Assembly: GCA_903857665.1 (NCBI GenBank)
Contig: CAIOFV010000159.1
Coordinates: 1,894-65,893, forward strand
Length of the DNA stretch: 64,000 nucleotides
Direction: 5' to 3'
DNA from: an uncultured Myxococcales bacterium
GTDB lineage: Bacteria > Myxococcota_A > UBA9042 > DTJE01
The position numbers were made by a program, and so were the translations under genes. This document shows, piece after piece, positions 1,954 to 63,090 of this stretch (position 1 is its first letter; each line of letters starts with the position of its first letter). Below the pieces are notes generated by a model, which made no database searches, had not been told where the DNA came from, and saw nothing but the letters and a program-made list of their open reading frames with translations.

Positions 1954-2054
1954 CGAACGCACGCCACCGCGGAGGCATCGTGGCCGACCGGCAGCAGGGT
2001 TCCCGGGACAATCGGGGCTTCGGGCCGTGGTTCGCGCGGCCGGGCTGACGCGTC

Positions 2055-3483: not shown

Positions 3484-3611
3484 ACGCCTCCCGGAATGCG
3501 ACGGCGGCCGGATCTGAACACGCCGGGCCACGGGGGTCAAGACGGGCCCGGAAGGCCTTACGGGCCGCCGCCCCTCGTCATCGGGAGGTCAATCGGGAAC
3601 ATCGCAGTCGA

Positions 3612-5846: not shown

Positions 5847-5895
5847 GGGGACACTCCTTGTTCGCGCGGAAGGCCGACGGGCGCACCCGCGCCGA

Positions 5896-8559
5896 TCAGC
5901 AGGGCGGCCAGTTGAGGGTCACGTAGGTGAGCTTGCACGTGGTCCCGTTGGGGTCGGTCGCGCAGAGCTGGACCTCCAGCTCGTCGCTGCTGCAGCTGCG
6001 CGTGAAGAACGTCAGCGGCGTCCAGGCCAGGTCGCGCACCGACCCGATCGTCTTGAACGTCCCGGTATCCCAGTAGCGGGCCTTCCAGACGTACGACACG
6101 CAGTCCGGGGTGCCGGCTGGGCAGTCCGCGAAGCCGCCGGGGCTGGTCACGGCGGCCTTCATCTTCAGGGACACCGTCGGGTCCGGGACGGCGAAGGGGT
6201 CCGCCGAGGTGCCCACCGGGGACGTGATCGAAACCGTTGGAGGCGCCTTGGGCGGAGCGTCCGCGACGGTGAAGCCGACGCTCGCCTCTGCGGTCGAACC
6301 GAAGTCGTCCGTTACGGTCAGGATCAGGCGATGCGTGCCGTTGGTCGTGAACTGGGTCTGGACCTCGCAGCCCGTCTGGCCGTTGATCGCGTCCCCGGGA
6401 TCGCTGCTCTTCCAGGCGAGCTTGCTGCACGGGACGCCCAGCGGCTGGTTCGGGTCGGTCCCGGTGCCCTGGACCACGTACGTGGTGTTCCGGTAGACGG
6501 TCTCGCCGTCCTGGGGCGCCACGATCGTCGCGACGGGCGGATCGTCGTCGACGGTGACCGACACGGCGGCCGTGGCCTTCTTGCCCATGCTGTCCGTCAC
6601 GGTCACGGTGATCGTCTGCGCGCCCAGCACGGTCAACGGCTGGTCCACGGCCTTGGAGGTCGAAAAGACGGTGACCGGGTCCGAGGAGTCGGTCCACTTC
6701 ACCGCGCAGCACCCGGGACCGTCCTCGGCGTCGGACATCTTCGCTTCGAAGTGGATGGTGCTGGCCAGGGCCCCGGCCTGGACGTGCGTCCCGTTCGCCG
6801 GGGACAGGATCTGGACCGTCGGGGCGGTGTTGGATGCGACCTGCTTCGGCAGGATCGCCACCGCGCCGTTCATCACTTCCTTCAGGTCGGTGAAGCCCAT
6901 GTAAGCGTAGCCGGCGTCACCCCAGCACTGGCCCCACGAGTTCTTGATGACCAGCCGCCGCCCGAACTCGGGACGATCCTGGACGAAATGGACCACGGCA
7001 CCGCTGGCCTGGACGGCATGGCTGCCCAGGTCGTGCTTTTCGGAAGCGACATCCGACGGATTCCACTGGCCGACCCATCCGCCCCCACCCAGATTGTCGG
7101 TGGAATTGAAGATGTTCCCGAAGCTGGCCACGATGTCGAAACCCATCGCGACGCTGTACCCCTGCGAAATGAACATCAGGGCGTAGTTCGCCGAGGCGTT
7201 GTCGGTGATGTCGAACAGAACGGCCATGCGGTCGACCGCGTACAGGCCCTTCGCCGAAGGGACGGGCGTCCAGTAGTACGCGGAGTGGTCGGACGCGTGG
7301 TACAGCACCTTCGCCTGGTGCGCGGTGTCGCCGCACGCCGGCCCCTGGTAGACGTCGCCGCCGTACCCGCAGGAGCGCTGGAACCAGGGCGGATCGCCGG
7401 CCGCGTATCCTGCGCAGGGCTTCTTGTCCGTGCACTCGATCCGCTCGTAGGCCTGGTTGTAGGCCCAGACGCCCTCCAGCGGCACCGCGAAGCCCGCGAG
7501 GATCATGTCGGCAACGATACTGGTCAGGGGGAGGCCGTCGTTGGCGTCGTCGGGGGACCAGAACAGCTTGGCCGTCGCGTACAGGCTCTGCTCCGACAGG
7601 TTCACCGCCTGCCCGTACCGCCTCAAGATGCTGTTTTCCATCGCGGCGACGATCCCGAAGGACACGCACGAGCCTCGAGCCCCCTGGGACTTGACGTCGG
7701 TGTCGTAGGACTTGCCCGGCCAGGTCGCCGCCATGTACAGCCCCTCGGGCTCGTGGGTGCAGCCGCTGCCGTAGTGGTCGCCCGCGTAGCCGCTGGAGGG
7801 TTCCGGTACGGCGCCTTCGAACTGCGAAGGATCGGTGATGACCGGGGCCCCGTCGCCGCTGTCGCCCAGGTCCTGCGACACGCCCTCCCAGCAGGTGGCG
7901 ACCTGCTTGTTCAAGGCCTCCAACGCAGCCAGGTCCATCGAACCGACCGTCGACGGGTCCGGGAGCCCGACCGCGCAGTCGTCGGGGATCAGCGGGAACA
8001 CCGTCGTGTAGATCGCGACCTGGTTGTCGATGGTGTGGAAGCGCCGGTAGGAGTCGACGATGTCGTGGATACGGGTCTGGCCGCCCTGGGTGACGACGGC
8101 CTGCTTCCCACCCTTCCCGTCGGCGACCAGGATCTGGTAGTTGCCGTCGGCCAGCACCGTCACGTCGGGGGAGGGAGGCGCCTCCAGGCGGGCCTGGAGC
8201 TCCGGCCGCTTCGCGTAGATTTCCTTCAGCGTCGCGGCATCCTCGACGGCCTGCTGCGCGCGGGCGGCATCGGCCAGGGCCTGGCGATCGGGGCCGAACG
8301 CCAGGAGGGTCCCGCTGGCCCGGAAGGCCTCCAGCTCCGAATCGGACACCTCGATGGCGCCCACGGGGGCCTGGGCCCAGGGCCCCTGGACCACGGCATC
8401 CGGCGGGGCGTCGGCCGCAGGGACATCCGGCGTGACATCCGCCAGGGGCACGTCCGGCGTTGCATCCGGAACCGCGTCCGGGGAACCGGCGGAGCCTGAC
8501 GCACAGCCGGCACATGCCAGGACGACCCAGAGCGCCGCGAAGGACCGGGTAGACCGCAT
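5896..8559 (-). CDS. secreted papain-like (C1 family) cysteine peptidase lipoprotein with C-terminal Ig/PKD-like domains
   Basis: ATG (MRSTRSFAALWVVLACAGCASGS) at 8559 lies 6 nt after AGGAG; lipobox LACAGC. Catalytic-Cys motif QGARGSCVSFG. His region SHAVQASGA. Signature KNSWGQCWGDAGYAYMGF (papain NSWGxxWGxxGY). Two or three ~90-aa beta-sandwich repeats in the C-terminal third. The 5896..8613 track ORF carries an 18-codon extension. Confidence 0.8.
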   Translation of the reverse strand: MRSTRSFAALWVVLACAGCASGSAGSPDAVPDATPDVPLADVTPDVPAADAPPDAVVQGPWAQAPVGAIEVSDSELEAFRASGTLLAFGPDRQALADAARAQQAVEDAATLKEIYAKRPELQARLEAPPSPDVTVLADGNYQILVADGKGGKQAVVTQGGQTRIHDIVDSYRRFHTIDNQVAIYTTVFPLIPDDCAVGLPDPSTVGSMDLAALEALNKQVATCWEGVSQDLGDSGDGAPVITDPSQFEGAVPEPSSGYAGDHYGSGCTHEPEGLYMAATWPGKSYDTDVKSQGARGSCVSFGIVAAMENSILRRYGQAVNLSEQSLYATAKLFWSPDDANDGLPLTSIVADMILAGFAVPLEGVWAYNQAYERIECTDKKPCAGYAAGDPPWFQRSCGYGGDVYQGPACGDTAHQAKVLYHASDHSAYYWTPVPSAKGLYAVDRMAVLFDITDNASANYALMFISQGYSVAMGFDIVASFGNIFNSTDNLGGGGWVGQWNPSDVASEKHDLGSHAVQASGAVVHFVQDRPEFGRRLVIKNSWGQCWGDAGYAYMGFTDLKEVMNGAVAILPKQVASNTAPTVQILSPANGTHVQAGALASTIHFEAKMSDAEDGPGCCAVKWTDSSDPVTVFSTSKAVDQPLTVLGAQTITVTVTDSMGKKATAAVSVTVDDDPPVATIVAPQDGETVYRNTTYVVQGTGTDPNQPLGVPCSKLAWKSSDPGDAINGQTGCEVQTQFTTNGTHRLILTVTDDFGSTAEASVGFTVADAPPKAPPTVSITSPVGTSADPFAVPDPTVSLKMKAAVTSPGGFADCPAGTPDCVSYVWKARYWDTGTFKTIGSVRDLAWTPLTFFTRSCSSDELEVQLCATDPNGTTCKLTYVTLNWPPC

Positions 8560-30963: not shown

Positions 30964-33960
30964 ATGGAACGGTATCCCGAGTACACGCGCGAACGCCTTC
31001 GGCAACTGGGCGCGACGCTGCAGTCGCTGGTGTACCCCGAACGGATCCGGTGCGACGAGATCCTCGCCACCGGCCCGACCGGGCGCATCCCGTTCGCGCG
31101 TGCGCAGTCCCTGGAGGGCTTCGCACCCGCACGCTTCGGCGAGGTGCTGGGGCCGGCGTGGGCCACCTGGTGGTTCCGCGTCCATGCCCGCGTGCCGGAA
31201 GCCTGGGACGGCCATCGCGTGGACCTGCTGTGGGAATCGGGCAGCGAAGCGACCCTCTGGATCGACGGCCGCAGCGTGCAGGGCCTCAATCCCCCCCCCA
31301 TCAACGCCCCGCTGTGCGGCCGCCCGGATGCCCCGCTGCGGCCCTGTGCCCGGGGCGGCGAGGACCTGTCCTTCCAGGTGGAAATGGCGTGCAACCAGGT
31401 GTTCGGCGAGCAGGACCTGCTGTACGGCCCGCAGCGGTTCGCGCTGGTCCAGTGCGACATCGCCCGCTTCGACCCGGAGGCCTGGGCGCTGGCCGGCGAC
31501 TTCCTGGTGCTGGTTGGGCTGGAAGCCGAGCACGCACGCGGGCTGGACCCGACCTGGGCCGGCGAATTGCTGTCCGGCCTGAACCGGTTCGCGAACCTCT
31601 ACAACGCGGAGGATCGCGCGACCTGGGGTCCGGCGCGCGCGGTGCTGGCCGGGTTGCTGGCGCACACGAACGGCGCCGGTTCGTCGATCCACCAGTTGAG
31701 CGCGTGCGGCCACGCGCACATGGACACCGCGTGGGTCTGGCCGATGGCCGAAACGAAGCGCAAGTGCGTCCGCACGTTCAGCAATGCGCTGCGGCTGATG
31801 GACGACTACCCGGAGTACCGCTTCGCCTGCTCGCAGGCGCAGCAGTACGCGTGGATCAAGGACGGCGACCCCGACCTGTACGAGCGCATCCGCGCGCAGG
31901 TCGCCGAGGGGCGCTTCATCCCGGTCGGGGGCATGTGGGTCGAGCCCGACTGCAACCTGATTTCGGGCGAGTCGCTGGTGCGGCAATTGCTGTTCGGGCA
32001 GCGCTTCTTCCAGCGCGAGTTCGGCATCACCTGCCGCGAGGGCTGGCTGCCCGACATCTTCGGGTACAACGGCCAGATGCCCCAACTGCTGTCGCTGGCC
32101 GGGATGGACCGGTTCGTGACGCAGAAGCTGTCGTGGAACCGGTTCAACCAGCCGCTGCACCACACCTTCGTCTGGGAGGGCATCGACGGGTCCGAGCTGC
32201 TGACGCACTTCCCGCCGGCCAACACCTACGGCGCCACCGCGACGGTCGAGGAGCTGCGCTTCAACGTGACCAACTTCAAGGACCACGACCGGTCGCGCGA
32301 AAGCCTGATGCTGTTCGGGCTGGGCGACGGGGGCGGAGGACCGACCCGGCGCATGCTGGAAAACCTGCGGCGCGTGCGCGACCTGCAGGGGCTGCCGCGC
32401 ACCGAAATCCGCTCGATCGACGCGTTCTTCGATCGCCTGGAGGCGGACTACCAGGACCGCACCCGCGTGGTCGGCGAGCTGTACCTGGAGTACCACCGCG
32501 GCACCTACACGTCCCAGGCGTTCATCAAGCGCGGCAACCGGGCCGGCGAGTTCCTGCTGCACGACATCGAACTGCTGGGTGCGGCCGCGCACCGGCTGGC
32601 CGGGGCGGCGTACCCGCATGCGGGGCTCGACAGCCTGTGGCAGCGCCTGCTGACGCTGCAGTTCCACGACATCCTGCCCGGCTCGTCATCGACGGAGGTC
32701 TACGACGACGCCCGCCGGGACCTTGCGATCATCGCCACGGAAGGCGCGTCCCTGCGCGAAGCCGCGATCGCCGCGCTGCCCCGCGGAGGCCCCGCCGGTC
32801 CGAGCGTGATCAACACGACCTCGTTCGCGCACGCCGCGGTGGTCGAAGGCGGCGACGGCGCTCTGGCGTGGGCCCAGGCGCCGGCCTGCGGGATCGGTCG
32901 CCTGGCAACCGCACCGGACGCGGTCGCGATGACCGTGCAGCCCGGGCGCATCGTGCTGGAAAACGCGCACCTGCGCGCCGAATTGGACGAGGACGGAGGG
33001 CTGGTCAGCCTGGTCGATCGCCCGACGGGGCGCGAGGCGCTGGCGGGCCCGGGCAACCGGCTGGTGCTGCACCCCGACCAGCCGACCCAGTACGACGCCT
33101 GGGAACTGGACCCCATCCACCTGGAGGTCGAACACAATTGCCCGCCCGCCGAGTCCTGCGAGCCCTTCGGACAAGGCTCCCTGAGGGCCGGCGTCCGCTA
33201 TCGCCGCGCGATCGGCGCACACAGCCGCATGGTCCAGACGGTTCGCCTGGACGCGGGGGCGCGCCGGCTGGAGTTCGTCACGGAAATCGACTGGCACGAG
33301 GACCACCAGGTGCTGAAGGTCGCCTTCCCGCTGGCGGTCCGGGCGATGCACGCGACCTACGAAATGCAGTTCGGCGCCGTCGAACGGCCCACGCACTTCA
33401 ACACGACCTTCGACCTGGCGCGCTTCGAGGTGCCGGGCCACCGGTGGGCCGACCTGTCCGAGCACGGCTTCGGCGTCGCGCTGCTGTCGGACAGCAAGTA
33501 CGGGTACTCCTGCCACCGGAACGTGCTGCGGATGACGCTGCTGCGAGCGCCGACCTTCCCGGACCCGACGGCCGACCGGGGCCCGCACCGGTTCGCGTAT
33601 GCGCTGATGCCGCACGCGGGCGGCTGGCAGGACGCGGGCGTGGTGGCGGAGGGGTTCCGGTTCAACGTGCCGCTGCGCATCAGCGACGCGAACCTGCAGC
33701 CGGGCAGCCTGTTCACGGTGGCCGACTGGAACCTGGTGATCGACACCGTGAAGAAGGCCGAGGACGACGACGGCCTGATCGTGCGCCTGTACGAGGCGCA
33801 CGGGGCGCGTGGCCGCGGCCGGCTGGTGCCCGGCATCCCGTTCACCACTGCGACGTTGGTCGACCTGCTGGAGCGCGATCTGGGTCCCGCCCTGGTGGTG
33901 GACGGGCGGATCGACATCGACTACCGCCCGTTCCAGGTGATCAGCGTGAAGCTGGTGTGA
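30964..33960 (+). CDS. glycoside hydrolase family 38 alpha-mannosidase (cytoplasmic)
   Basis: 998 aa. GH38 N-domain motifs HAHMDTAWVW, GGMWVEPDCNL, DIFGY and a central/C-terminal beta-sandwich. No signal peptide. Confidence 0.85.
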   Translation: MERYPEYTRERLRQLGATLQSLVYPERIRCDEILATGPTGRIPFARAQSLEGFAPARFGEVLGPAWATWWFRVHARVPEAWDGHRVDLLWESGSEATLWIDGRSVQGLNPPPINAPLCGRPDAPLRPCARGGEDLSFQVEMACNQVFGEQDLLYGPQRFALVQCDIARFDPEAWALAGDFLVLVGLEAEHARGLDPTWAGELLSGLNRFANLYNAEDRATWGPARAVLAGLLAHTNGAGSSIHQLSACGHAHMDTAWVWPMAETKRKCVRTFSNALRLMDDYPEYRFACSQAQQYAWIKDGDPDLYERIRAQVAEGRFIPVGGMWVEPDCNLISGESLVRQLLFGQRFFQREFGITCREGWLPDIFGYNGQMPQLLSLAGMDRFVTQKLSWNRFNQPLHHTFVWEGIDGSELLTHFPPANTYGATATVEELRFNVTNFKDHDRSRESLMLFGLGDGGGGPTRRMLENLRRVRDLQGLPRTEIRSIDAFFDRLEADYQDRTRVVGELYLEYHRGTYTSQAFIKRGNRAGEFLLHDIELLGAAAHRLAGAAYPHAGLDSLWQRLLTLQFHDILPGSSSTEVYDDARRDLAIIATEGASLREAAIAALPRGGPAGPSVINTTSFAHAAVVEGGDGALAWAQAPACGIGRLATAPDAVAMTVQPGRIVLENAHLRAELDEDGGLVSLVDRPTGREALAGPGNRLVLHPDQPTQYDAWELDPIHLEVEHNCPPAESCEPFGQGSLRAGVRYRRAIGAHSRMVQTVRLDAGARRLEFVTEIDWHEDHQVLKVAFPLAVRAMHATYEMQFGAVERPTHFNTTFDLARFEVPGHRWADLSEHGFGVALLSDSKYGYSCHRNVLRMTLLRAPTFPDPTADRGPHRFAYALMPHAGGWQDAGVVAEGFRFNVPLRISDANLQPGSLFTVADWNLVIDTVKKAEDDDGLIVRLYEAHGARGRGRLVPGIPFTTATLVDLLERDLGPALVVDGRIDIDYRPFQVISVKLV

Positions 33961-54379: not shown

Positions 54380-56241
54380 CGCGGTTCCCACGCACGCTGG
54401 CGGTGCTGATCGTCGCGGCCGCCGTGGGCCTCGGGACGGCCTTCGTCAGGGAGGCCCGGCGCGACGACGCCACCGGTCGCGGCCCGGACCGCGCGGGAGG
54501 GCGGACCGAGCGGTGCCTGACCTGCCATGACCGCCCCGACGAAAGCCCCGGCGGGGCCCACGCGGCCGAGGCGATCGGCTGCGAGGCGTGCCACCTGGGA
54601 AACCCCTGGGCCTTCGACAGGGAACGGGCCCACGCCGGGCTCGAACGGGAACCCGGCGCGCTGGACACCGTGGGACGCACCTGCGGCCGCGAGGGGTGCC
54701 ACGCCCGGGAGGCGGGTCGGGTCGCGACCTCGCTGATGGCCACGGGGCGCGGGTTGATCGCGGTGGATCGGTGGGTGCTGGGCGAAACACCCGGACCCGA
54801 CGGAACGGAGGGCTTCGCCGCGCTGCTGGCCACTCCCCGACCTACGCCGGCGCAGGATCACCTGCGGCGCAATTGCGCGGGATGCCACCTGCGGACCCGG
54901 GGGGACAACCGCGACGACGCGGTCCGGGGGATCGGATCGGGATGCGGCTCGTGCCACGCCACGCGCAAGGCCGCGCTGACGATGCGCGCCCACGTGCCGG
55001 TGGATGCGAAGGTGCCCGACGATCGCTGCCTGGGCTGCCACAGCCGCAGCGGCCGGATCAGCCTGTCGTACGCCGGGCTGGCGGAAACAAAGCCGGACCA
55101 GCCTGCGCTCGAGGGGAACGTCCGGTTGTTCGACGGACGACCTGCGACGCGGGCGGCGACAGACGTCCATCACGAAAAGGGCCTGGGTTGCACGGACTGC
55201 CACCTGCACACGGACGTGATGGGCGACGGGAACGCGCATGCCCACCAGGAGCAGCAGGTCGCGATCACCTGCGAGGCCTGCCACGGGCCCGTCCAGGAGC
55301 AGGACGAGCGGCCCTGGGCGACGGTCGATGACCCGATCACCCGGGACCTGCTGCGAATGCGGACGACGGAACGGACGCCCCTGGAACCGGCCCGCCTGGG
55401 ACGCCGGGGAGTCCCTGTGTGGAACGCGCGACCGATGGCCGCGCTGCCGGTCGAGGCGCGCCCCGCAGCCGGCGCGGACGGCCGGTCGGCGCCTTGGACA
55501 CTGCAAGGCAAGACCGACGGCCGGGAACACCCGGTGCGGCAGACCCCGGCCGACCCCGATCATCGCCTGGCCGGACACCGCCGCCTGTCCTGCCAGTCCT
55601 GCCACTCGGCCTGGGCTCCCTCCTGCACGACCTGCCACACCCGCTACGCTCCCGAAGGCCGCCAGTGGGACTTCGGTCGGGGCGCCGTTGCAGGCGGGGA
55701 ATGGGTCGAGGAGTCGGAGCGGTTCGGCTGGGGAGCGTCCGCCCTCGCCGTTCAGGGCGACCGGATCGTGCCGGCGATCCCGGGCATGGTGCTGACGGCC
55801 GACCTGGGCGCGTCCGAAGGCGCGCACGTTTCGCGACGCCTGTACGCGGCAATCGACCCGCACACGACCCGGAAGGAGTCGCGGTCGTGCGCGTCCTGCC
55901 ACGCCTCGTCGATCGCGCTGGGCCTGGGCACGGGGACGCTGGACCTGGGCATCGACGGGCCGCGCTTCGTGCCGGCCGAGCCGCGGTCCGACCAGCCCGC
56001 CGACGCCCGCGACGGGTGGGTGTCGCTGTTCCCGGAGGCGCCGGCCCCGGGCACCCGGACGGACGTCCGTTCCCTGGACGCCCCCGAGCAGCGCCGCACG
56101 CTGCGCGTGGCCCCGTGCCTGCCCTGCCACGCGAAATCGGCGGACGCGATCTACCGGGATTTCGATCGGTCGGTGAAGACGCTTCTGGACGGGGGAAGCC
56201 GGTGCACGTTCGAGGCCCCGCGATGGATCGGAGTTCGGTAG
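54376..56241 (+). CDS. multihaem c-type cytochrome (11 CxxCH + 1 CxxxxCH)
   Basis: ATG 54376 overlaps the cyt b stop (ATGA). N-terminal signal/anchor MTRFPRTLAVLIVAAAVGLGTAF. Haem motifs CLTCH, CEACH, CGREGCH, CAGCH, CGSCH, CLGCH, CTDCH, CEACH, CQSCH, CTTCH, CASCH, CLPCH. Confidence 0.85.
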   Translation: MTRFPRTLAVLIVAAAVGLGTAFVREARRDDATGRGPDRAGGRTERCLTCHDRPDESPGGAHAAEAIGCEACHLGNPWAFDRERAHAGLEREPGALDTVGRTCGREGCHAREAGRVATSLMATGRGLIAVDRWVLGETPGPDGTEGFAALLATPRPTPAQDHLRRNCAGCHLRTRGDNRDDAVRGIGSGCGSCHATRKAALTMRAHVPVDAKVPDDRCLGCHSRSGRISLSYAGLAETKPDQPALEGNVRLFDGRPATRAATDVHHEKGLGCTDCHLHTDVMGDGNAHAHQEQQVAITCEACHGPVQEQDERPWATVDDPITRDLLRMRTTERTPLEPARLGRRGVPVWNARPMAALPVEARPAAGADGRSAPWTLQGKTDGREHPVRQTPADPDHRLAGHRRLSCQSCHSAWAPSCTTCHTRYAPEGRQWDFGRGAVAGGEWVEESERFGWGASALAVQGDRIVPAIPGMVLTADLGASEGAHVSRRLYAAIDPHTTRKESRSCASCHASSIALGLGTGTLDLGIDGPRFVPAEPRSDQPADARDGWVSLFPEAPAPGTRTDVRSLDAPEQRRTLRVAPCLPCHAKSADAIYRDFDRSVKTLLDGGSRCTFEAPRWIGVR

Positions 56242-56249
56242 GGGAATCG

Positions 56250-57437
56250 CTAGCAGCCGCCGCCCTTCTTGGCGGGGGCGGGGGCGTCGTCGCGAACCGG
56301 CGCCACGACCGGGCGAACGGCGGGGGGCGGAGCCTGGACCTTCGCGCCGCTGAAGTATGCGACCAGGGCCGACCGCAGGCGCCAGTCGGCCAGCACCGCA
56401 GGGGATGCGTCCGCCGGCGCCGCGGCCACCGACAGGATGCCGGACTCGAACGCGGGGAAGCCGCCGGCCAGCACCGCGACGTCGCCCTTGAACCGGCGCG
56501 CGCCCTCGGGCGGGACCATGTCGCCCGCGCCGACCAGCACCAGCGTGCGCGACGACGGCAGGGACGCCAGGAACGCGCCGTCGGTGTCGTCCGCGGGCCG
56601 GCACAGCGAGCCCGGGATCCGCTTCACCGCGCACTCGGCCGCCGGGCGCAGGTCCGCGACCTGCACGGCGCCCGGGCGTTCGATCAGCGCCTTCGCCAGC
56701 GTCACCGCGTCCCACGAGGCCACGGTCCGTTCCGGAACCACCGGGACGGGCGCCGCGGGCAGCGCCATCGTCGCCAGGCCCAGCACTGCCGCCACGCCGA
56801 AACCCGCGAACACCTTGTTGCGCGTCGGGGCCGACGCCGCCGGCGGTTCCTCGCCGCGGCTCTTGCCCAGGGTGCGCTCGACCCACTCGGCGAACAGGAA
56901 CGCCCCCACCGCCATCGCGGCGACGCCCGCGGCGATCACCGACTGCGGCACGCCCAGTTGGTCCGGCAGCCGCACGACGCCCATCGCGCCGCTGGTGTAG
57001 AAATCCGCCACCAGCGGGTACGCCAGGCCGAAGACCAGCGAGCCCGCAATCACACCGACAATCGTCATCAGGCCATCCCACTTGCCCGACGCCATGGACA
57101 CCCAGGACGTCCCGGGGCAGTAGCCCGACACGATGAAGCCGACGCCCAGCAGCAGCCCGCCGAAGATCTGCGGCCCCAGGAACGTTTCGGGCACCGTCAG
57201 CTGCGACATGTCCAGCAGGCCCACGCCCGACAGCACCGTCATGCCCAGCAGGGCCGTCACGATGGCCGAAAACATCACCTTCAGCACGCGCATGTCGGAC
57301 CCGTAGAACTGCGCGGCCAGGATCGGGGCCTGCCCGAAGCCCGAGCCCTCCAGCGTGAAGCCGAAGGCGATCCCGATCACCGTGCCCAGCACCAGGCTCG
57401 CCTCGTGACCGAAGTGCACCGAGAGGGGGAACATCAT
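56250..57437 (-). CDS. YeeE/YedE-family (DUF395) half-transporter fused to a C-terminal rhodanese-like sulfurtransferase domain
   Basis: ATG 57437 lies 9 nt after GGAGG and overlaps the upstream stop (ATGATG). GYCPGTS motif of the second YeeE repeat. The C-terminal ~150 aa (VQVADLRPAAECAVKRIPGSLCRPADD...) is rhodanese-like with a candidate active Cys. Confidence 0.7.
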   Translation of the reverse strand: MMFPLSVHFGHEASLVLGTVIGIAFGFTLEGSGFGQAPILAAQFYGSDMRVLKVMFSAIVTALLGMTVLSGVGLLDMSQLTVPETFLGPQIFGGLLLGVGFIVSGYCPGTSWVSMASGKWDGLMTIVGVIAGSLVFGLAYPLVADFYTSGAMGVVRLPDQLGVPQSVIAAGVAAMAVGAFLFAEWVERTLGKSRGEEPPAASAPTRNKVFAGFGVAAVLGLATMALPAAPVPVVPERTVASWDAVTLAKALIERPGAVQVADLRPAAECAVKRIPGSLCRPADDTDGAFLASLPSSRTLVLVGAGDMVPPEGARRFKGDVAVLAGGFPAFESGILSVAAAPADASPAVLADWRLRSALVAYFSGAKVQAPPPAVRPVVAPVRDDAPAPAKKGGGC

Positions 57438-57952
57438 CGCCACTGCCTCCGCACGAGGGGCGCGAACAGGTAGCCGCCGGCGAACACGCACATCATGAAC
57501 ACCCACGAACCCAGCGACAGCGCCGAGCCGCCCGTCAGCGCCTGGCCCGACGTGCAGCCGCGGCCGAACCGCGCCGCCACGCCCATCAGCAATCCGCCGA
57601 CGAACGCCAGGGCCAGCCGCGTCCACGGGGACACCGGCCGCTTGCCCATCGAGATGCCGCGGCGCATGCGCCCGGCCGAGTACGCGCCGAGGGCGCCGCC
57701 CAGCACGACACCCAGCACCTCGAACACCAGCCAGTCGTCCAGCACGTTCTTGCCGGGGCCGACGTACTCGGCGAAGTACGCGTTGGACTCGACGGCCTGC
57801 GGCGCGATCATGTCCGCGGCGCCGATCCCCAGGCGGTTCGCCGCGCCCGACGCGCCCAGACCGTTGCCCACGACCAGGAACGACCCCAGCAGCACCAGGC
57901 CGAGGACGACCCCGGCCACGTAGGGGTTCCAGAGCGGACGGGGAGACTGCAT
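57434..57952 (-). CDS. YeeE/YedE-family (DUF395) half-transporter (first repeat)
   Basis: ATG 57952 lies 7 nt after GGAGGTG. Conserved GRGCTSG motif. 172 aa, ~4 TM. Confidence 0.75.
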   Translation of the reverse strand: MQSPRPLWNPYVAGVVLGLVLLGSFLVVGNGLGASGAANRLGIGAADMIAPQAVESNAYFAEYVGPGKNVLDDWLVFEVLGVVLGGALGAYSAGRMRRGISMGKRPVSPWTRLALAFVGGLLMGVAARFGRGCTSGQALTGGSALSLGSWVFMMCVFAGGYLFAPLVRRQWR

Positions 57953-57962
57953 CACGCACCTC

Positions 57963-58937
57963 CTACGGGAATTCCCGGAAACTGGACGCCTGTCCCGACA
58001 GCATCAGCACGACCCGCAACGACAGCCCGCCGATCAGCACCAGCACCGGGGTCAGCATCGCCAGCGGCAGGCGCCGCCGGATCTCGACGGCCTCCAGGGC
58101 CAGCGGCACGCCCAGGCCCGTCACCACCACCAGCGACCAGAACGGCGCGGCCCACGGTCCCGAGGTCAGGTGCCAGAACGCGTGCTGCGACGTCCGGTCC
58201 CCGGTGGCGAACCCGACCAGCAGCACCCCGATCAGCACCAGCTCCGCGACGATCGCCCCGACGTCCCAGCGCACCACCGCGTGGCGCTCGTGCTCGTCCA
58301 GCCCCAGCAGCAGCAGCAGCGCCGCGCCGGTGGACATCCCCGACGTCAGGAACAGCGGGCCCAGGATCGCCGAGTTCCACTGCGGCCGCGCCGCCATGGC
58401 ACCCAGCAGGATGCCGGTGTAGATGCCCAGCCCGGCGCCCACCACCACGCCCGCCCACAGCAGCGGCCGCCGCAGGGCATCCGCACGCCCCAGCAGGCAC
58501 ATCAAGAGCGAGGTGAGGCGAACCCGACCCGCCGACGCGAGCAGCCGCGCCCTCTCACCCTCGGTCAGCCCGCCCAGGCCCAGCAGGATCGCCACCGGGT
58601 ACACCAGCAGCAGGATCCACGACCCCCACGACATCGGCGAGGTCGCCTCGAAGGCCAGGTAGAACCGGTACACGTGCAGCTTGAACGACAGGTCCAGGAA
58701 CAGCGCGCACATGCCCAGCGACAGCAGCGCGGCCGATAGCCACGGCGCCAGCCGCAGCGCCATCGACCGCGCCTTCGCGCCCGACAGCAGTTCCATCAGC
58801 GCCGGCAGGATCAGCACGCCGGCCGCCAGCCCGCCCAGGAACAGGTACACGGGGATTTCCCAGCCCCAGACCTGCAGCGACGGGTCGATCAGGGCGTTGT
58901 GCCGTCCGTGGACGACCTCCAGCATCGCGTCGTTCAT
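57963..58937 (-). CDS. psrC: NrfD/PsrC-family membrane anchor of a molybdopterin oxidoreductase
   Basis: 324 aa, 8-9 TM. N-terminus LEVVHGRHNALIDPSLQVWGWEIPVYLFLGGLAAG is typical of PsrC/NrfD. G7 tract as RBS. Confidence 0.8.
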   Translation of the reverse strand: MNDAMLEVVHGRHNALIDPSLQVWGWEIPVYLFLGGLAAGVLILPALMELLSGAKARSMALRLAPWLSAALLSLGMCALFLDLSFKLHVYRFYLAFEATSPMSWGSWILLLVYPVAILLGLGGLTEGERARLLASAGRVRLTSLLMCLLGRADALRRPLLWAGVVVGAGLGIYTGILLGAMAARPQWNSAILGPLFLTSGMSTGAALLLLLGLDEHERHAVVRWDVGAIVAELVLIGVLLVGFATGDRTSQHAFWHLTSGPWAAPFWSLVVVTGLGVPLALEAVEIRRRLPLAMLTPVLVLIGGLSLRVVLMLSGQASSFREFP

Positions 58938-58947
58938 CGCCCCCCCA

Positions 58948-59577
58948 TCACGTCAGGAAGAACACGTTCGGCTCGCACCCGGTTTCGGGATGCAGCACCT
59001 TCGACTTCCGCCCGCGCAGCAGCCGCGACACCTCCGACTCGGGGTCGTTCAGGTTGCCGAAGTGCAGGCAGAACGTCGGGCAGACCTCCACGCACGCGGG
59101 CTGCTTGCCGGCCTGGACCCGGTGCAGGCAGAACGTGCACTTGTCCACGTACCCGTCCGGGTGCGGGTAGCGCGAATCGTACGGGCAAGACGCGATGCAG
59201 GCCTTGCAGCCCGTGCACTTGTCGTGCGTGACCAGCACCGCGCCGCCGTCCTCGACGTGGCTGGCGCCGGTGGGGCACGCCGCGACGCACGGAGGCTTGG
59301 CGCAGTGGTTGCAGCGTTCGGACCGGTTTTCCGCCGACAGGTGCGGGAACCAGCCGCGGACCTCCTCGACCAGCCAGTCCCGGGAGTACCCGTCGGGCAC
59401 CGCGTTTTCGCCCTTGCAGGCCAGCACGCAGGCCTTGCAGGCGACGCACAGCCGGGTGTCCACGACCATCGCGTACCGTTTCTCCCTCCCGAGCGCGGAG
59501 GCGTAGGCGACGGGTTTGAGCAGGAAACTCTCGCCGGAGCGGGAGCCGCCTCGGGACGGTTCAATCTGTCCACTCAT
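58948..59577 (-). CDS. psrB: 4Fe-4S ferredoxin-type electron-transfer subunit (PsrB/DmsB-like)
   Basis: Four Cys clusters (CVACKAC, CNHCAKPPCVAAC, CTGCKACIASCP, CTFC). The ATG at 59577 overlaps the psrA stop, but a ~33-aa N-terminal extension before KRYAMVVD makes the exact start uncertain. Confidence 0.8.
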   Translation of the reverse strand: MSGQIEPSRGGSRSGESFLLKPVAYASALGREKRYAMVVDTRLCVACKACVLACKGENAVPDGYSRDWLVEEVRGWFPHLSAENRSERCNHCAKPPCVAACPTGASHVEDGGAVLVTHDKCTGCKACIASCPYDSRYPHPDGYVDKCTFCLHRVQAGKQPACVEVCPTFCLHFGNLNDPESEVSRLLRGRKSKVLHPETGCEPNVFFLT

Positions 59578-61781
59578 GCCCTCTCCACCCGCACGAAGTT
59601 CACGCTCATGCCGGTCCCCCCCATGATCGGGTCGGTCTTGATGCGCGTCACCAGGCGCGAATCGTCGGCACCACGGTTCCGTGCGTACCGCAGCCCCTTC
59701 GCGTCATGCCCGAAGCCGTGGACCATGAACACGCAGTCGGTCCGGATGCGCTGGGTCGCCTTCAGCCGGATCGGCTGGGACCGCACTCCGTCCTGGTTTA
59801 CCGCGACGACCGTCTCGCCATCCTTCAGGCCCAACTCCGCCGCCATCTGCGCGTTCAGCCACAGTTCGTTCTGGTTGAAGACCTCGGACAGGAACCGGTT
59901 GTTGGTGGTCCGCCCGAACGTGTGGGTCGGCGCGCGGCCGAACAGCAGCCGGAAGTGCCCCGTCGGCGGCTCCTCGGGCGGCGTGAACTGCGGGATCGGG
60001 TCGAACCCCGCATCCTTCAGCCTCTGCGAAAACAGTTCGATCTTCCCGGACGGCGTCGCGAACTTCGGCACCAGGCCGTCCTCGATCGTGGTGGGTCGGG
60101 GCTTCCCGATCACCACGCCGGTGGTCCGCAGCACGTCGCAGTCGTACCCCGCCGCGTGCACCCGCTGCATCGCGTATTCCATGCTGTCCTTCCACGGGAA
60201 GTAGTCGGACAGGCCCAGGCGCAGCGCGATTTCGCGGGCGATCCACCATCCGGGCTTGCTGTCGTACATCGGGGGAACCACTTCCTGCCGCACCGCCGCG
60301 AACGGCACCTTCCAGGGCGGGTTGTCGATGTCGTCGCACCGCTCCAGGTACGTCGCCTCGGGCAGCACGACGTCGGCCCAGCCCACGATTTCCGCGGGCA
60401 GCACGTCCACCACCGCGATGAAGTCCAGCGCCTGGATCGCCTCCTTGGTCCGTTCCGGCTGCGGCAGCGCCATCAGCAGGTTCGTGCCGTAGACCAGCCA
60501 CCCCTTGATGTCGTAGGAGGCCGTGCCCGGGATCGACGCCATGCACAGGCCGCTGGCCAGCACCTCGTCCGCCAGCGGGTACCCCTGGTCCTTCGGCCGG
60601 TCCGGCGGCGCCTTCGGGTGGCCCTGGTAGGCGGTGTACGGGTACGCCGGCAGCGCCATCTGCGACGGCACGAAGATCCCGCCGCGGCGCGCGTAGGAAC
60701 CCAGCAGCGCGTTGAGGATCGCGACCGCCCGGCTGCGCTGGGTGTCGTCGCCGTACCAGACCACGTGGCGCCCCGGGTGCACCAGCGACGCGGGCCGCCC
60801 GCCCGCCATCACCCGCGCCGTCTCCACGATCGTTTCCGGCGCGATGGTCGTCTGCGTGTACGCCCACTCGGGCGTCTTGTCCCGGACGTGCTCCTTCAAT
60901 TGGTCGAAACCGATGGCGTACTGGTCGATGTAGTCCTTGTCGTACAGCCCCTCGGCGATGATCACGTGCATCCACGCCAGCAGCAGCGCCAGGTCGGTGC
61001 CCGGCTTGATGGGCAGCCAGTATTTCGCCTTGCCCGCAGCGGTCGAGAAGCGCGGGTCCACCACGATCAGCGTCGCGCCGCGGTCGATGGCGGTGGCGAA
61101 CTCCTGCACCTGGGTGTTGTGCATGTTCTCGCCCAGGTGCGACCCGATCAGCGTGATCACGCGCGAGTTTTCCAGGTCCAGCACCTCCGGCGAACCCAGC
61201 GTCGAGCCGTACGTCAACTGGAAGCCGACCTCCCGGGGCCCGCGGCACTGGGCGTACGAGGGCGCCGCGATGTTCTTGGACCCGTAGGCCTTCAGCAGGT
61301 GCTTGAACCACGAGCCGCCGTACCCGTGCGAATACAGGGCCAGCGACTCGGGGCCGTACCGGTCCTTCAGGTTCAGCAGGCGCTGCGCGGTGAAGTCCAG
61401 CGCCTCCTCCCACGACACCTCCTCGAACACCTGCTCGCCGCGCTTCTCGCGACGCAGCATCGGGCGCTTGAGGCGATCCGGGTCGTACAGCAGGCCGGTG
61501 CCGCCGGTGCCGCGCGGGCACAGCCGGCCGCGGGACAGCGGGTGCGCGGGGTTGCCGGTGATCTTGGTCACGCGGCCGTCCTTCACGTGGGCCAGCACGC
61601 CGCACTTCCAGAAGCACAGTTCGCAGAACGTCGGCACCACGCGGTCGCCGTCGGTGCCCGGGTTCGCGACCGGGTCGTCGTCCAGGCCCCACCACCGCGT
61701 GGTGAGCCCCGACCCGACTGCCGCGGCGCCCGCCGTCGCGGCCCCGATCTTGATGAACTGCCTGCGCGTCACGCCGGACAT
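59574..61781 (-). CDS. psrA: Tat-exported molybdopterin (bis-MGD) oxidoreductase catalytic subunit, polysulfide/thiosulfate/tetrathionate-reductase (PsrA/PhsA)-like
   Basis: ATG 61781 lies 6 nt after AAGGAGG. Tat motif TRRQFIKIGAATAGAAAVGSG. N-terminal FeS motif CELCFWKCG...C. MopB superfamily. The 868-aa track ORF includes upstream non-coding codons. Confidence 0.85.
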   Translation of the reverse strand: MSGVTRRQFIKIGAATAGAAAVGSGLTTRWWGLDDDPVANPGTDGDRVVPTFCELCFWKCGVLAHVKDGRVTKITGNPAHPLSRGRLCPRGTGGTGLLYDPDRLKRPMLRREKRGEQVFEEVSWEEALDFTAQRLLNLKDRYGPESLALYSHGYGGSWFKHLLKAYGSKNIAAPSYAQCRGPREVGFQLTYGSTLGSPEVLDLENSRVITLIGSHLGENMHNTQVQEFATAIDRGATLIVVDPRFSTAAGKAKYWLPIKPGTDLALLLAWMHVIIAEGLYDKDYIDQYAIGFDQLKEHVRDKTPEWAYTQTTIAPETIVETARVMAGGRPASLVHPGRHVVWYGDDTQRSRAVAILNALLGSYARRGGIFVPSQMALPAYPYTAYQGHPKAPPDRPKDQGYPLADEVLASGLCMASIPGTASYDIKGWLVYGTNLLMALPQPERTKEAIQALDFIAVVDVLPAEIVGWADVVLPEATYLERCDDIDNPPWKVPFAAVRQEVVPPMYDSKPGWWIAREIALRLGLSDYFPWKDSMEYAMQRVHAAGYDCDVLRTTGVVIGKPRPTTIEDGLVPKFATPSGKIELFSQRLKDAGFDPIPQFTPPEEPPTGHFRLLFGRAPTHTFGRTTNNRFLSEVFNQNELWLNAQMAAELGLKDGETVVAVNQDGVRSQPIRLKATQRIRTDCVFMVHGFGHDAKGLRYARNRGADDSRLVTRIKTDPIMGGTGMSVNFVRVERA

Positions 61782-61798
61782 GAACGCCTCCTTGCCGG

Positions 61799-62122
61799 TC
61801 AGGCCCCCGTGACGAGGGCACAGGTCGATATGCAGTGCAGCAACTGCGTCGTCTGGGGCACCGCCAGCGAGTAGAACCGGAACCCCTGGGCGCGCCGCAC
61901 CGACACCAGGCCGTTCATCCGCAGGATCCCCAACTGCTGGGACAGCGCCGCCTGGGGCAGGTCCAGTTCCCGACCCAGGTCCCCGACCGACCGCTCGCCG
62001 TGGCAGCACAGGTGGGCGACGATCCTCAGCCTGGCGGGATGGCCCAGCGCCTTCAGCAGCCCGGCCGCCTTCTCCACCTTGCGTTCGTCGATCATCACGT
62101 GCCTGATCTTCGCGATGTCCAT
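61799..62122 (-). CDS. ArsR-family regulator with Cys pairs (BigR/SqrR-like candidate sulfane-sulfur sensor)
   Basis: ATG 62122 is directly preceded by a G9 tract. HTH LLKALGHPARLRIVAHLCCHGERSVGDLGRELDLPQAALSQQLGILRMNGLV. Cys pairs at HLCCHG and C-terminal HCISTC. It is the first gene of the psr/yeeE operon. Confidence 0.7.
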   Translation of the reverse strand: MDIAKIRHVMIDERKVEKAAGLLKALGHPARLRIVAHLCCHGERSVGDLGRELDLPQAALSQQLGILRMNGLVSVRRAQGFRFYSLAVPQTTQLLHCISTCALVTGA

Positions 62123-62165
62123 TGCCCCCCCCCGAACCGGCCGTTCCCGGCCGTCGGGTTGGACC

Positions 62166-62177
62166 ATATCCAGATAT
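62166..62177 (+). promoter_or_regulatory. AT-rich inverted repeat ATATCcaGATAT in the arsR/tauE divergent intergenic region (candidate operator)
   Basis: The only AT-rich palindrome in a GC-rich 130-bp divergent promoter region. HlyU/BigR-type ArsR regulators bind AT-rich palindromes. Confidence 0.3.
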
Positions 62178-62253
62178 CATGCTTTCTGCAAGTCTATTTC
62201 GAGGGCCAAAAATGGCTGGATCCCTCGCGCCCCTTTCCGCCTAGAATCCACCC

Positions 62254-63090
62254 ATGAGCCCGCTGGATTTCACGCTGGTCACGTTCGGCGTCGCGATGGT
62301 CGCCGGCTTCTTCGGGTCGCTGCTGGGCCTGGGCGGCGGGATGATCGTGACGCCGGTCCTGACCCTGGCCCTTGGGGTCGATATCCGCTACGCCATCGGC
62401 GCGTCGCTGGTGTCGGTGATCGCCACGTCCAGCGGCGCGGCGGCCGCGTATGTCCGCGAGCACAAGACCAACATGCGCGTGGCCATGTTCCTGGAGGTCG
62501 GCACGACGCTGGGGGCGATCAGCGGCGCCTGGCTTTCCACCCGCATCGACGCTCAATGGCTGTACCTGATCTTCGGCCTGGCGCTGGCGGGATCGGCCAT
62601 CGCGATGTTCCGCAAACGCCACGCCGCGGGCGGACCGGTCCCCGCGGATCCGACGGCCGACCGCCTGCGCCTGCACGGCGAATTCTACGACGAGTCGCTG
62701 CACCGCACGGTGGCCTACCGCGTGTCCGGCAGCCGGCCCGCGCTGGGACTGATGTACGTGGCGGGCGTGCTGAGCGGCCTGCTGGGCATCGGGTCGGGCG
62801 CGCTGAAGGTCCCCGCGATGGACCTCGCGATGCGTCTGCCGCTGAAGGTGTCGTCCGCGACCAGCAACTTCATGATCGGCGTCACCGCGGCGGCCAGCGC
62901 CTGCGTGTATTTCATGCGCGGCGACATCGTCCCGTTCATCGCGGGCCCGGTGGCCGCCGGTGTGCTGGTGGGCGCCACGATGGGCTCGCGCGTGATGGGG
63001 CGGCTGGACAACCGGCTGCTGCGCACCGTGTTCGTGATCGTGCTGATGATCGTTTCGGCGCAGATGATCCTGAAGGGGGCCCGGGGATGA
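62254..63090 (+). CDS. tauE: TSUP-family sulfite/organosulfonate exporter (TauE/SafE, DUF81)
   Basis: 278 aa, 8 TM with two GxxGxGGG-type repeats (SLLGLGGGMIV; GLLGIGSGAL). Confidence 0.8.
   Translation: MSPLDFTLVTFGVAMVAGFFGSLLGLGGGMIVTPVLTLALGVDIRYAIGASLVSVIATSSGAAAAYVREHKTNMRVAMFLEVGTTLGAISGAWLSTRIDAQWLYLIFGLALAGSAIAMFRKRHAAGGPVPADPTADRLRLHGEFYDESLHRTVAYRVSGSRPALGLMYVAGVLSGLLGIGSGALKVPAMDLAMRLPLKVSSATSNFMIGVTAAASACVYFMRGDIVPFIAGPVAAGVLVGATMGSRVMGRLDNRLLRTVFVIVLMIVSAQMILKGARG

Follow-up and report, generated by a model that had tools for sequence, protein, structure and literature searches.

What does a small ArsR-family regulator respond to when it heads a psr/yeeE operon, and through which of its cysteines? 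The question is raised by a 64,000-nucleotide stretch of DNA from an uncultured Myxococcales bacterium (contig CAIOFV010000159.1), called the window throughout, in which such a regulator gene is followed by genes for a polysulfide/thiosulfate-reductase-like enzyme and for sulfur transporters. An earlier note, made from the letters of this DNA, had described the protein as a BigR/SqrR-like persulfide sensor with two pairs of cysteines, a palindrome in the promoter it shares with a divergent gene, and a homopolymer at its ribosome-binding site that might vary in length. We favor, with a probability of roughly 0.55, a reading in which the regulator is a thiol-based, sulfane-sulfur-responsive autorepressor whose sensing site has been relocated on the ArsR scaffold. 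Related loci and proteins are denoted below by L and P numbers.

Cysteines of the regulator

The regulator exceeds the Pfam cut-offs for HTH_5 (36.6 bits against 22) and HTH_20 (35.4 bits against 27), as well as that of the generic ArsR/SmtB model of NCBIfam (NF033788; 74.6 bits against 55). Its AlphaFold model, with a predicted local distance difference test (pLDDT) score of 94.9, has the order α0-α1-α2-α3-α4-β1-β2-α5, which is the ArsR/SmtB core topology plus an N-terminal α0; the elements comprise helices at residues 13-26, 29-41, 46-53 and 57-69, strands at 73-78 and 81-86, and a helix at 91-105. Foldseek assigns a probability of 1.00 to HlyU, BigR, SqrR and CzrA. The nearest solved relatives by fold are HlyU, BigR and SqrR (37-42% identity), alongside M. 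smegmatis SmtB, and those by sequence are BigR (3pqj, E 5e-15), SqrR (6o8l, 5e-13), Rv0081 and HlyU. By these matches the protein belongs to the ArsR/SmtB superfamily, and its place in the neighborhood of BigR and SqrR is real.

The description of an ArsR-family regulator that heads a psr/yeeE operon and lacks the ELCVCD arsenic site is borne out by these scores, by the gene order and by the sequence of α3 (residues 46-53). In this helix, which carries the arsenic site in other family members, the ELCVCD position reads GERSVGDL and contains no cysteine, and the classical α3 and α5 metal ligands are not present in the sequence or the alignment. The two cysteine motifs reported earlier also exist, although they had been misplaced. 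HLCCHG (residues 37-42), said to be in helix 3, falls at the end of α2 in the AlphaFold model, and HCISTC (residues 96-101), given as C-x4-C at the C-terminus, is a C-x3-C motif, with its cysteines at positions i and i+4 of α5.

The two motifs differ in their conservation. The 12 closest homologues all retain Cys97 and Cys101, but the CC pair varies among them, its region reading HLHCQG, HLYVGG, GLSRLG, QLNRHG and others; the close relatives P0004, P0005 and P0007 have no α2 cysteine and keep C-x3-C. When 1.84 billion representative proteins were searched with a profile, 2,562 matched at E <= 1e-10. In most of the top 150 of these C-[LIVM]-x-x-C occupies the same α5 positions, and within that set Cys39 occurs in approximately 45% of representatives at 50% identity. 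When 50 representatives (38-83% identity) were aligned, Cys97 and Cys101 made up two of only six invariant columns, and about 17 of the aligned proteins carry an extra cysteine right after Cys101. A second profile search, of a set of 5.8 billion proteins, gave at least 2,164 clusters (90% identity) at E <= 1e-15, with C-x3-C in all 115 newly listed best matches and the α2 motif L-C-x-G-E, which includes Cys39, in 111 of them. Cys39 is thus common in the wider clade and lost in several close relatives, whereas Cys40 is rare, a lineage-specific extra residue, and the idea of a conserved CC pair does not survive.

Judged by its sequence, then, the regulator is a member of a large unnamed ArsR clade marked by an invariant C-x3-C motif in α5. 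The members examined come from metagenome-assembled genomes (MAGs) labeled Myxococcales/Myxococcota, Gammaproteobacteria, Enterobacterales, Gemmatimonadales and Spirochaetia. In a neighbor-joining tree (86 columns, no bootstrap values) all C-x3-C sequences included, with the exception of L031, form one cluster apart from SqrR, BigR, HlyU and Rv0081. Our literature search found no description of this clade, of a C-x3-C ArsR or of an ArsR regulator of psr/yeeE genes. None of the characterized ArsR proteins listed in PMC10054925 was recognized by name as a member, a comparison of names and not of sequences. The ArsR2 proteins linked to hgcAB have a different cysteine pattern from that of this clade. 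One further protein, P0010, encoded on a European Nucleotide Archive (ENA) contig of 1,235 bp, is identical to the window regulator over its first 57 residues, including HLCCHGERSVG, and its remainder resembles the Rv0081-like proteins P0015 and P0016, without C-x3-C; it is a natural recombinant or an assembly chimera.

To our knowledge, the characterized ArsR persulfide sensors (SqrR, BigR, HlyU, SoxR, sHdrR, PigS and YgaV) all share one cysteine pair. The earlier note had named an alignment with BigR and SqrR as the check on its assignment, and in that alignment the sensing cysteines meet no cysteine of the regulator. The mid-α2 residue (C41 of SqrR, C42 of BigR) aligns with Ala36 in both HMMER and MAFFT alignments, alanine being the clade consensus, and the residue at the end of α5 (C107 of SqrR, C108 of BigR) aligns with Leu103, or with Ala102 in the pairwise alignment with SqrR. 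Relative to the canonical positions 36 and 103, Cys39 is displaced by +3 on α2, and Cys101 and Cys97 by -2 and -6 on α5. The two helices being antiparallel, the thiol pocket may have slid by about one helical turn along the α2/α5 groove. Against the BigR equivalog model of NCBI (NF040642) the regulator reaches 63 bits where 155 are required, and the best E-values among 50 clade members are 8e-19 for BigR and 5e-16 for TsoR, far from equivalog level. None of the NCBIfam equivalogs BigR, TsoR, PagR, CmtR and Rv2640c is reached by the regulator, and a literature search on TsoR yielded nothing relevant.

These displacements bear directly on whether the regulator could be a regular sensor of the BigR/SqrR type, with one α2 cysteine (Cys39 or Cys40) and one α5 cysteine (Cys97 or Cys101) joined in an intraprotomer tetrasulfide as C41 and C107 are in SqrR. 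BigR and SqrR are its closest solved relatives, Cys39 is nearly constant in the core of the clade, and the shifts along antiparallel helices could keep the thiols facing each other. Yet the canonical positions are occupied by Ala36 and Leu103, the equivalog score falls far short, and the clade stands apart from SqrR, BigR and HlyU in the tree. Furthermore, P0004, P0005, P0007 and about half of the representatives at 50% identity lack an α2 cysteine while retaining both C-x3-C and the psr operon. We consider a regular BigR/SqrR-type mechanism unlikely.

The invariance of the α5 pair also speaks to a repressor that has no effector, in which the cysteines would be structural and control would come from regulator abundance or from other factors. 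NolR provides a precedent, since it belongs to the persulfide-sensor cluster and has no known inducer site (PMC10054925). However, two cysteines that persist over 38-83% identity and through thousands of sequences are hard to explain without a function in a cytoplasmic protein of 107 amino acids, which makes this alternative very improbable.

Gene neighborhood and candidate signals

Seventeen nucleotides separate the stop codon of the regulator gene from the start codon of psrA, whose ribosome-binding site reads AAGGAGG, and a terminator scan of 61700-62400 found none between the two genes. Downstream lie psrB, psrC and two yeeE genes (Table 1). The molybdopterin subunit has PhsA as its best NCBIfam match, at 478 bits; an identity as the arsenate reductase ArrA, which scores 160 bits, was rejected. 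The window has a GC content of approximately 70% and encodes a PsrA that shares 94% identity with the L001 protein, both of which suggest that the DNA derives from a Myxococcota genome.

Table 1. Features of the regulator locus in the window (positions in window numbering; a dot marks a site without assigned strand).
Feature	Position	Strand	Description and evidence
ArsR-family regulator, coding sequence	61799-62122	-	107 amino acids plus stop, MDIAK...; Pfam, NCBIfam, homologue lengths, gene calls, AlphaFold
Cys39/Cys40 codons, TGC TGC	62003-62008	-	Last turn of α2 (model helix 29-41)
α5 C-x3-C motif	61820-61834	-	Cys97 at 61832-61834, Cys101 at 61820-61822; model helix 91-105; proposed sensing dithiol
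Operator, 6-2-6 dyad GATATC-TG-GATATG (regulator strand)	62165-62178	.	Uniqueness in the window, conservation
Putative promoter of the regulator-psr operon	62163-62191	-	-35-like TTGCAG 62186-62191, 17-nt spacer, -10-like TATGGT 62163-62168
G9 tract (C9 on forward strand)	62125-62133	-	2 nt before ATG; Shine-Dalgarno-like
Two-tier hairpin at 5' end of regulator mRNA	62131-62158	-	Predicted fold CCCGA CGGCCG GGAA CGGCCG GU UCGGG
psrA/phsA-like molybdopterin oxidoreductase, Tat signal	59574-61781	-	Pfam Molybdopterin, Fe4S4, Molydop_binding, TAT_signal
Rest of operon	56250-59577	-	Pfam Fer4_11, NrfD, Sulf_transp
psrB, four-cluster ferredoxin	58948-59577	-	Pfam Fer4_11
psrC/NrfD	57963-58937	-	Pfam NrfD
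Half-size YeeE/YedE protein, 173 amino acids	57434-57955	-	Matches C-terminal half of Pfam model
YeeE fused to rhodanese-like C-terminal domain, 395 amino acids	56250-57437	-	Matches N-terminal half of Pfam model
TauE/SafE-family (TSUP) permease, divergent	62254-63090	+	Pfam TauE, E 6e-54

Gene context was surveyed at 17 loci out of the thousands of clade members. The regulator heads psrA-psrB-(nrfD)-yeeE-yeeE in ten of them (the window, L001, L002, L007, L009, L086, L087, L089, L090 and L091), among which L001 and L002 are from Myxococcales MAGs and encode regulators 83% and 77% identical to that of the window, L007 is from a Gammaproteobacteria MAG and L009 from a Myxococcota MAG. At three others (L003, L088 and a JGI contig) it heads a dsrE2-tusA operon with dsrM-like and dsrK-like genes. 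Thus 13 of the 17 loci carry a psrAB-yeeE or dsrE2-tusA operon behind the regulator, and in a fourteenth, L031, the regulator faces tusA, rhodanese and tusA genes. Seven of these members (L086 to L091 and the JGI contig) had been picked solely for their long flanking sequence, and all seven head sulfur operons, five of the psrA-psrB-yeeE-yeeE kind with nrfD and two of the dsrE2-tusA-dsrM-like-dsrK-like kind.

The same neighborhoods can be weighed against a sensor of metals or metalloids, such as As(III), Sb(III), Cd or Pb, built as an S2 or S3 site from Cys97, Cys101 and Cys39. Conserved thiols with a third supplied from variable places (Cys39, or the cysteine after Cys101) resemble the As(III) sites that have evolved in other ArsR proteins (PMC10054925). 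In addition, L087 has a divergent ArsP_1/HMA permease gene, and in Pseudodesulfovibrio mercurii As(III) induces a Psr-like operon (10.1101/2022.10.17.512643). On the other side, no ars genes occur in the Pfam-annotated or inspected flanks of clade loci, and none of these loci has an arsB/acr3, arsC, arsM or metal-efflux gene running in the same direction as the regulator. The sulfur operons at 13 of 17 loci and the tusA-rhodanese neighbors at a fourteenth, the PhsA-like character of PsrA and the absence of the classical metal ligands all point the same way. A metal sensor is in our view distinctly unlikely.

A general redox or peroxide switch would draw on one of two disulfides, a vicinal one between Cys39 and Cys40 or a plain one formed by Cys97 and Cys101 in an oxidizing environment, turning an anaerobic respiratory operon off or on. 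The regulator does have adjacent cysteines, Psr is an anaerobic respiratory enzyme, and the H2O2-sensing ArsR protein RexT uses a vicinal Cys40-Cys41 disulfide, formed by a pair in α3 that contacts the wing (PMC8960804). In the regulator, by contrast, the pair sits at the end of α2, Cys40 is rare across the clade and RexT is a weak sequence match (E 1.2e-4). The neighboring genes, moreover, belong to sulfur trafficking rather than to the thioredoxin or NADH oxidoreductase type. Such a switch is quite improbable, and a sulfane-sulfur signal remains the reading that we prefer.

Several observations concern the neighboring genes themselves. The yeeE/yedE gene is split in two in all psr-type loci examined. 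A rhodanese-like domain may be assigned weakly to the C-terminal part of the larger YeeE protein, from a weak PF00581 match in its L090 homologue and from reading of the sequence, with no Pfam match in the window protein; the domain appears to lack the catalytic cysteine loop. The divergent tauE gene is found in L001, L092 and an ENA contig, and is absent from L002. Convergent with the end of the operon, on the forward strand at about 54400-56241, is a long open reading frame whose later part, from ~MTRFPRTLAVLIV, holds approximately 11 CxxCH heme-binding motifs and which probably encodes a large multiheme cytochrome c. L091 (positions 1566-5855) contains three ArsR-like genes in one sulfur cluster, of which one heads a separate yeeE pair and two (108 and 97 amino acids) stand in tandem before psrA and after a multiheme cytochrome gene.

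Operator, promoter and leader

The 131-bp gap between the regulator ATG (62122) and the tauE ATG (62254) contains the palindrome that the earlier note had placed in a shared promoter. Its core, ATATC-NN-GATAT, reads ATATCcaGATAT at 62166-62177 and lies within the 14-bp match CATATCCAGATATC at 62165-62178. No other site in the window comes as close (one mismatch to the 6-2-6 dyad), and the only other match with up to two mismatches overlaps it, where 0.23 would be expected by chance. The core is identical in L085, L092, L093 and L001, is ATATC-CG-GATAT in L094 and is present in two copies in L002. A longer block, ACTTGCAGAAAGCATGATATCTGGATAT[G/C]GTCC on the regulator strand, is identical in the window, in L085, L092 and L093, and in L001, with diverging flanks; L094, whose regulator is 79% identical, has TTGCAGGAAACCATATATCCGGATATACA at this block.

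Across the 17 regulator loci the core, allowing one mismatch, occurs 10 times in 2.8 kb of upstream sequence against 3 times in 174 kb elsewhere, an enrichment of approximately 180-fold. The 10 upstream matches fall in eight loci that include the distant L086, L088, L003 and L087. Most are positioned at -43 to -67 relative to the regulator start, with that of L003 at -15. In L088 and L086 the half-sites repeat in tandem with a period of 8 bp. A SqrR-type operator, whose core is ATTC-N8-GAAT (10.64898/2026.05.15.721447), has no match with up to one mismatch near 61.7-62.4 kb, which counts further against a regular BigR/SqrR-type sensor at this promoter.

The dyad fills the 17-nucleotide spacer of the putative regulator promoter and overlaps its -10-like box. 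On the other side, tauE has a conserved, near-consensus TAGAAT -10-like box at 62242-62247, six nucleotides before its ATG and approximately 70 bp from the dyad. This box is conserved in L001, L085 and L092, and tauE has no Shine-Dalgarno sequence, a layout that suggests a leaderless tauE mRNA from a promoter independent of the operator. In L001 an insertion of roughly 90 nucleotides separates the operator from tauE. Because of this insertion, the distance of about 70 bp and the absence of a divergent tauE from L002, we assign the operator to the regulator-psr promoter and not to a shared one. The palindrome is real, conserved and better than chance, but it belongs to the regulator's own promoter. 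The L001 insert (approximately 5810-5905) is a near-perfect inverted repeat derived from a duplicated GGAAAATGGGGACAGACACC unit, seen in this relative only, and looks like a small mobile element or one of the repetitive extragenic palindromic (REP) type.

The position of the operator is also relevant to where the gene begins. The start codon is the ATG at 62120-62122 (MDIAK...). Close homologues with the same cysteine motifs have 106-111 amino acids, mostly 107, and begin at the equivalent of this ATG. The same start was assigned by gene calling in five other, independent metagenome contigs, and in L001 the codon just before the regulator ATG is an in-frame TGA. On these three grounds the coding sequence was set as in Table 1, and a 122-amino-acid open reading frame from the ATG at 62167 was rejected; that ATG falls within the operator and the -10 box.

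The run of nine C residues noted just upstream of the start codon is likewise present, as G9 on the coding strand, although it is no commoner than chance would have it. In the window two G/C runs of nine or more are observed, compared with 3.1 +/- 1.8 expected from first-order Markov simulations. The only other 9-nucleotide G/C homopolymer (31291-31299) lies within long overlapping open reading frames and is probably coding. The window shares G9 with four independent metagenome contigs that encode the identical protein (L081-L084, of which L082 has a single-nucleotide polymorphism elsewhere), and three contigs whose regulator is 96% identical (L085, L092 and L093) have GGAGGGGGG in its place. 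L001 has GGGGGGTGA (G6TG) before the ATG and L094 has GGGGGTGCCC (G5), and L002 has no G run. The lineages thus differ by substitutions that keep a purine-rich Shine-Dalgarno element and not by changes in length. The psrC start has the same layout, with G7-CG-ATG (58940-58946, minus strand) corresponding to G9-CA-ATG at the regulator, and a run of G appears to be a recurrent form of Shine-Dalgarno element in this operon.

A nine-nucleotide homopolymer two nucleotides before a start codon would be a natural place for slipped-strand phase variation, which would alter the spacing between ribosome-binding site and start. The length variation anticipated by the earlier note was not seen. G9 is constant in five assemblies and its replacement in three sister-lineage contigs, the substitutions between lineages, the chance-level frequency of such runs and the similar psrC start all argue that a phase switch is extremely improbable. 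We read the tract as a ribosome-binding-site-plus-stem element rather than a contingency locus, a judgment made on consensus assemblies, in which minor length variants could go unseen.

The stem in question is a two-tier hairpin into which the 5' end of the regulator mRNA is predicted to fold. Its folding energy is -21.4 kcal/mol with a z-score of -2.6 over 41 nucleotides and -29.3 kcal/mol with a z-score of -3.7 over 49 nucleotides. The base of the hairpin would be formed by the first G residues of the tract and a C run upstream of them, leaving the last five or six G residues free. L085, L001 and L094 are predicted to fold likewise, with changed stems and one compensatory pair, and L002, which has no G run, lacks the hairpin; in two relatives the z-scores are -0.2 and -0.6. 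Support for the hairpin is modest, the comparison being one of single-sequence folds, with a four-sequence consensus alignment degraded by indels. It could stabilize the mRNA or tune its translation. An Rfam scan of 61500-62600 gave no family with E <= 1, so no known riboswitch or leader was detected there.

Proposed switch and comparison with known systems

Taken together, these features suggest a homodimeric winged-helix repressor encoded by the first gene of a regulator-psrA-psrB-psrC-yeeE-yeeE/rhodanese operon. In its reduced form it would bind the 6-2-6 dyad GATATC-NN-GATAT[C/G] over the spacer and -10 box of its own promoter, so that its own gene and those for the polysulfide/thiosulfate reductase and the sulfur transporters would all be shut off. 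The signal would most likely be sulfane sulfur, as polysulfide or persulfides, and would be received by Cys97 and Cys101, one helical turn apart on α5 and often joined by Cys39 of α2. A link among these thiols, whether a trisulfide, a tetrasulfide or a disulfide, would lower the affinity for DNA, and the operon would be derepressed for polysulfide/thiosulfate reduction and YeeE-mediated sulfur transport. The Cα atoms of an i/i+4 pair on a helix lie approximately 6 Å apart. By analogy, Cys97 and Cys101 could behave similarly to the cysteine pair of SqrR. In that protein the Sγ atoms are 7.0 Å apart, and selectivity has been attributed to a strained disulfide versus a relaxed tetrasulfide (10.1101/2020.03.22.001966).

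Several points weigh against this proposal. The sensing residues would differ from those of the characterized sensors, and the proximity of Cys39, Cys97 and Cys101 is read from helix geometry. Three cysteines would also make a fitting site for As(III), Sb(III) or soft metals. The C-x3-C loci L005, L006 and L008 have no recognized sulfur genes nearby, with unreliable open reading frame calls at the high-GC loci L005 and L008. The operator, at up to one mismatch, is found in only 8 of the 17 loci. Finally, the promoter hexamers are weak, matching 7 of 12 consensus positions, and a sigma-70 and terminator scan of 61700-62400 called nothing at threshold; we therefore infer the promoter from conservation.

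More broadly, we suggest tentatively that the α5 C-x3-C clade may constitute a distinct and widespread class of sulfane-sulfur sensors, in which an intrahelical i/i+4 dithiol, assisted by Cys39, would capture the sulfur of polysulfide; the clade would then be the dedicated switch of two conserved modules, psrAB(C)-split yeeE-rhodanese and dsrE2-tusA-dsrMK-like. This goes further than the reading of the single regulator, and we hold it to be possible, somewhat short of an even chance. If true, it would mean that the ArsR scaffold supports a sensing geometry not described before, and a large sister clade with moved thiols would be a natural test of the structural model that ties selectivity to the geometry of the cysteine pair. 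It would, in addition, open to genetic study the way in which environmental bacteria turn on polysulfide/thiosulfate respiration and the associated YeeE and DsrE2-TusA sulfur-trafficking modules, for which our literature search found no described regulator. In practical terms, the ATATC-NN-GATAT operator and a repressor of 107 amino acids make a compact candidate for a polysulfide biosensor.

How far does this arrangement depart from systems already described? RexT of Nostoc (cluster 6 of the ArsR sequence similarity network, SSN) has, like the regulator, an ArsR fold, two adjacent cysteines and no metal site. The regulator differs in that its CC pair ends α2, approximately five residues earlier, in that its α3 is free of cysteine, and in that Cys40 is not conserved and the gene context is another. 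The atypical As(III)-responsive ArsR of Acidithiobacillus ferrooxidans (AfArsR; SSN cluster 5) shares with it the placement of sensing cysteines on α5 rather than α3, and has a three-thiol signature. Its pattern is reportedly CC-x5-C, formed by Cys95, Cys96 and Cys102, all in α5. The regulator has only two α5 cysteines, as C-x3-C, plus one in α2, and ars genes are missing from the annotated or inspected flanks of its clade. Cluster 5 and the independently evolved As(III) sites of ArsR proteins have been described (PMC10054925). The regulator is neither RexT-like nor an arsenic sensor of the AfArsR type.

The operator invites comparison with the classical SmtB/CzrA sites, which are 12-2-12 with a 6-2-6 core. 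Like them, it is an imperfect dyad with a 2-bp center that overlaps the promoter of the regulator's own operon, and when extended to 12-2-12 by reading from the sequences it matches at 7-8 of 12 positions. The half-site is GATATC here, as opposed to the TGAACA type.

The closest comparison is with SSN cluster 4, to which SqrR of Rhodobacter capsulatus, BigR of Xylella and Acinetobacter, HlyU and SoxR/sHdrR belong and with which the regulator shares its fold. In these persulfide sensors a cysteine of α2 and one at the end of α5 become bridged by sulfur, releasing DNA, and the canonical members adjoin sulfurtransferase and sulfur-transporter genes (PMC10054925; 10.1101/2020.03.22.001966; PMC10451225). 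The regulator is likewise small and keeps the SQQL recognition helix, with autorepression that we infer. Its neighbors, as in the BigR/SqrR regulons, include sulfur transporters of the YeeE and TauE types and a rhodanese-like domain, and thiol sensing is likely. It differs in using Cys39, Cys97 and Cys101 in place of C41/42 and C107/108, in a dyad with a spacing of two rather than the eight of SqrR, and in its putative target, a respiratory reductase of the Psr/Phs type with split YeeE, not the SQR/PDO detoxification genes. Four defining features that were tested, namely both cysteine positions, the equivalog score and the operator, fail on sequence comparison, and the regulator should therefore not be filed as BigR or SqrR. 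What is ordinary here is the pairing of a regulator with an operator; what is new is a thiol signature that has been relocated throughout the clade and that is tightly linked to psr-yeeE and dsrE2-tusA modules.

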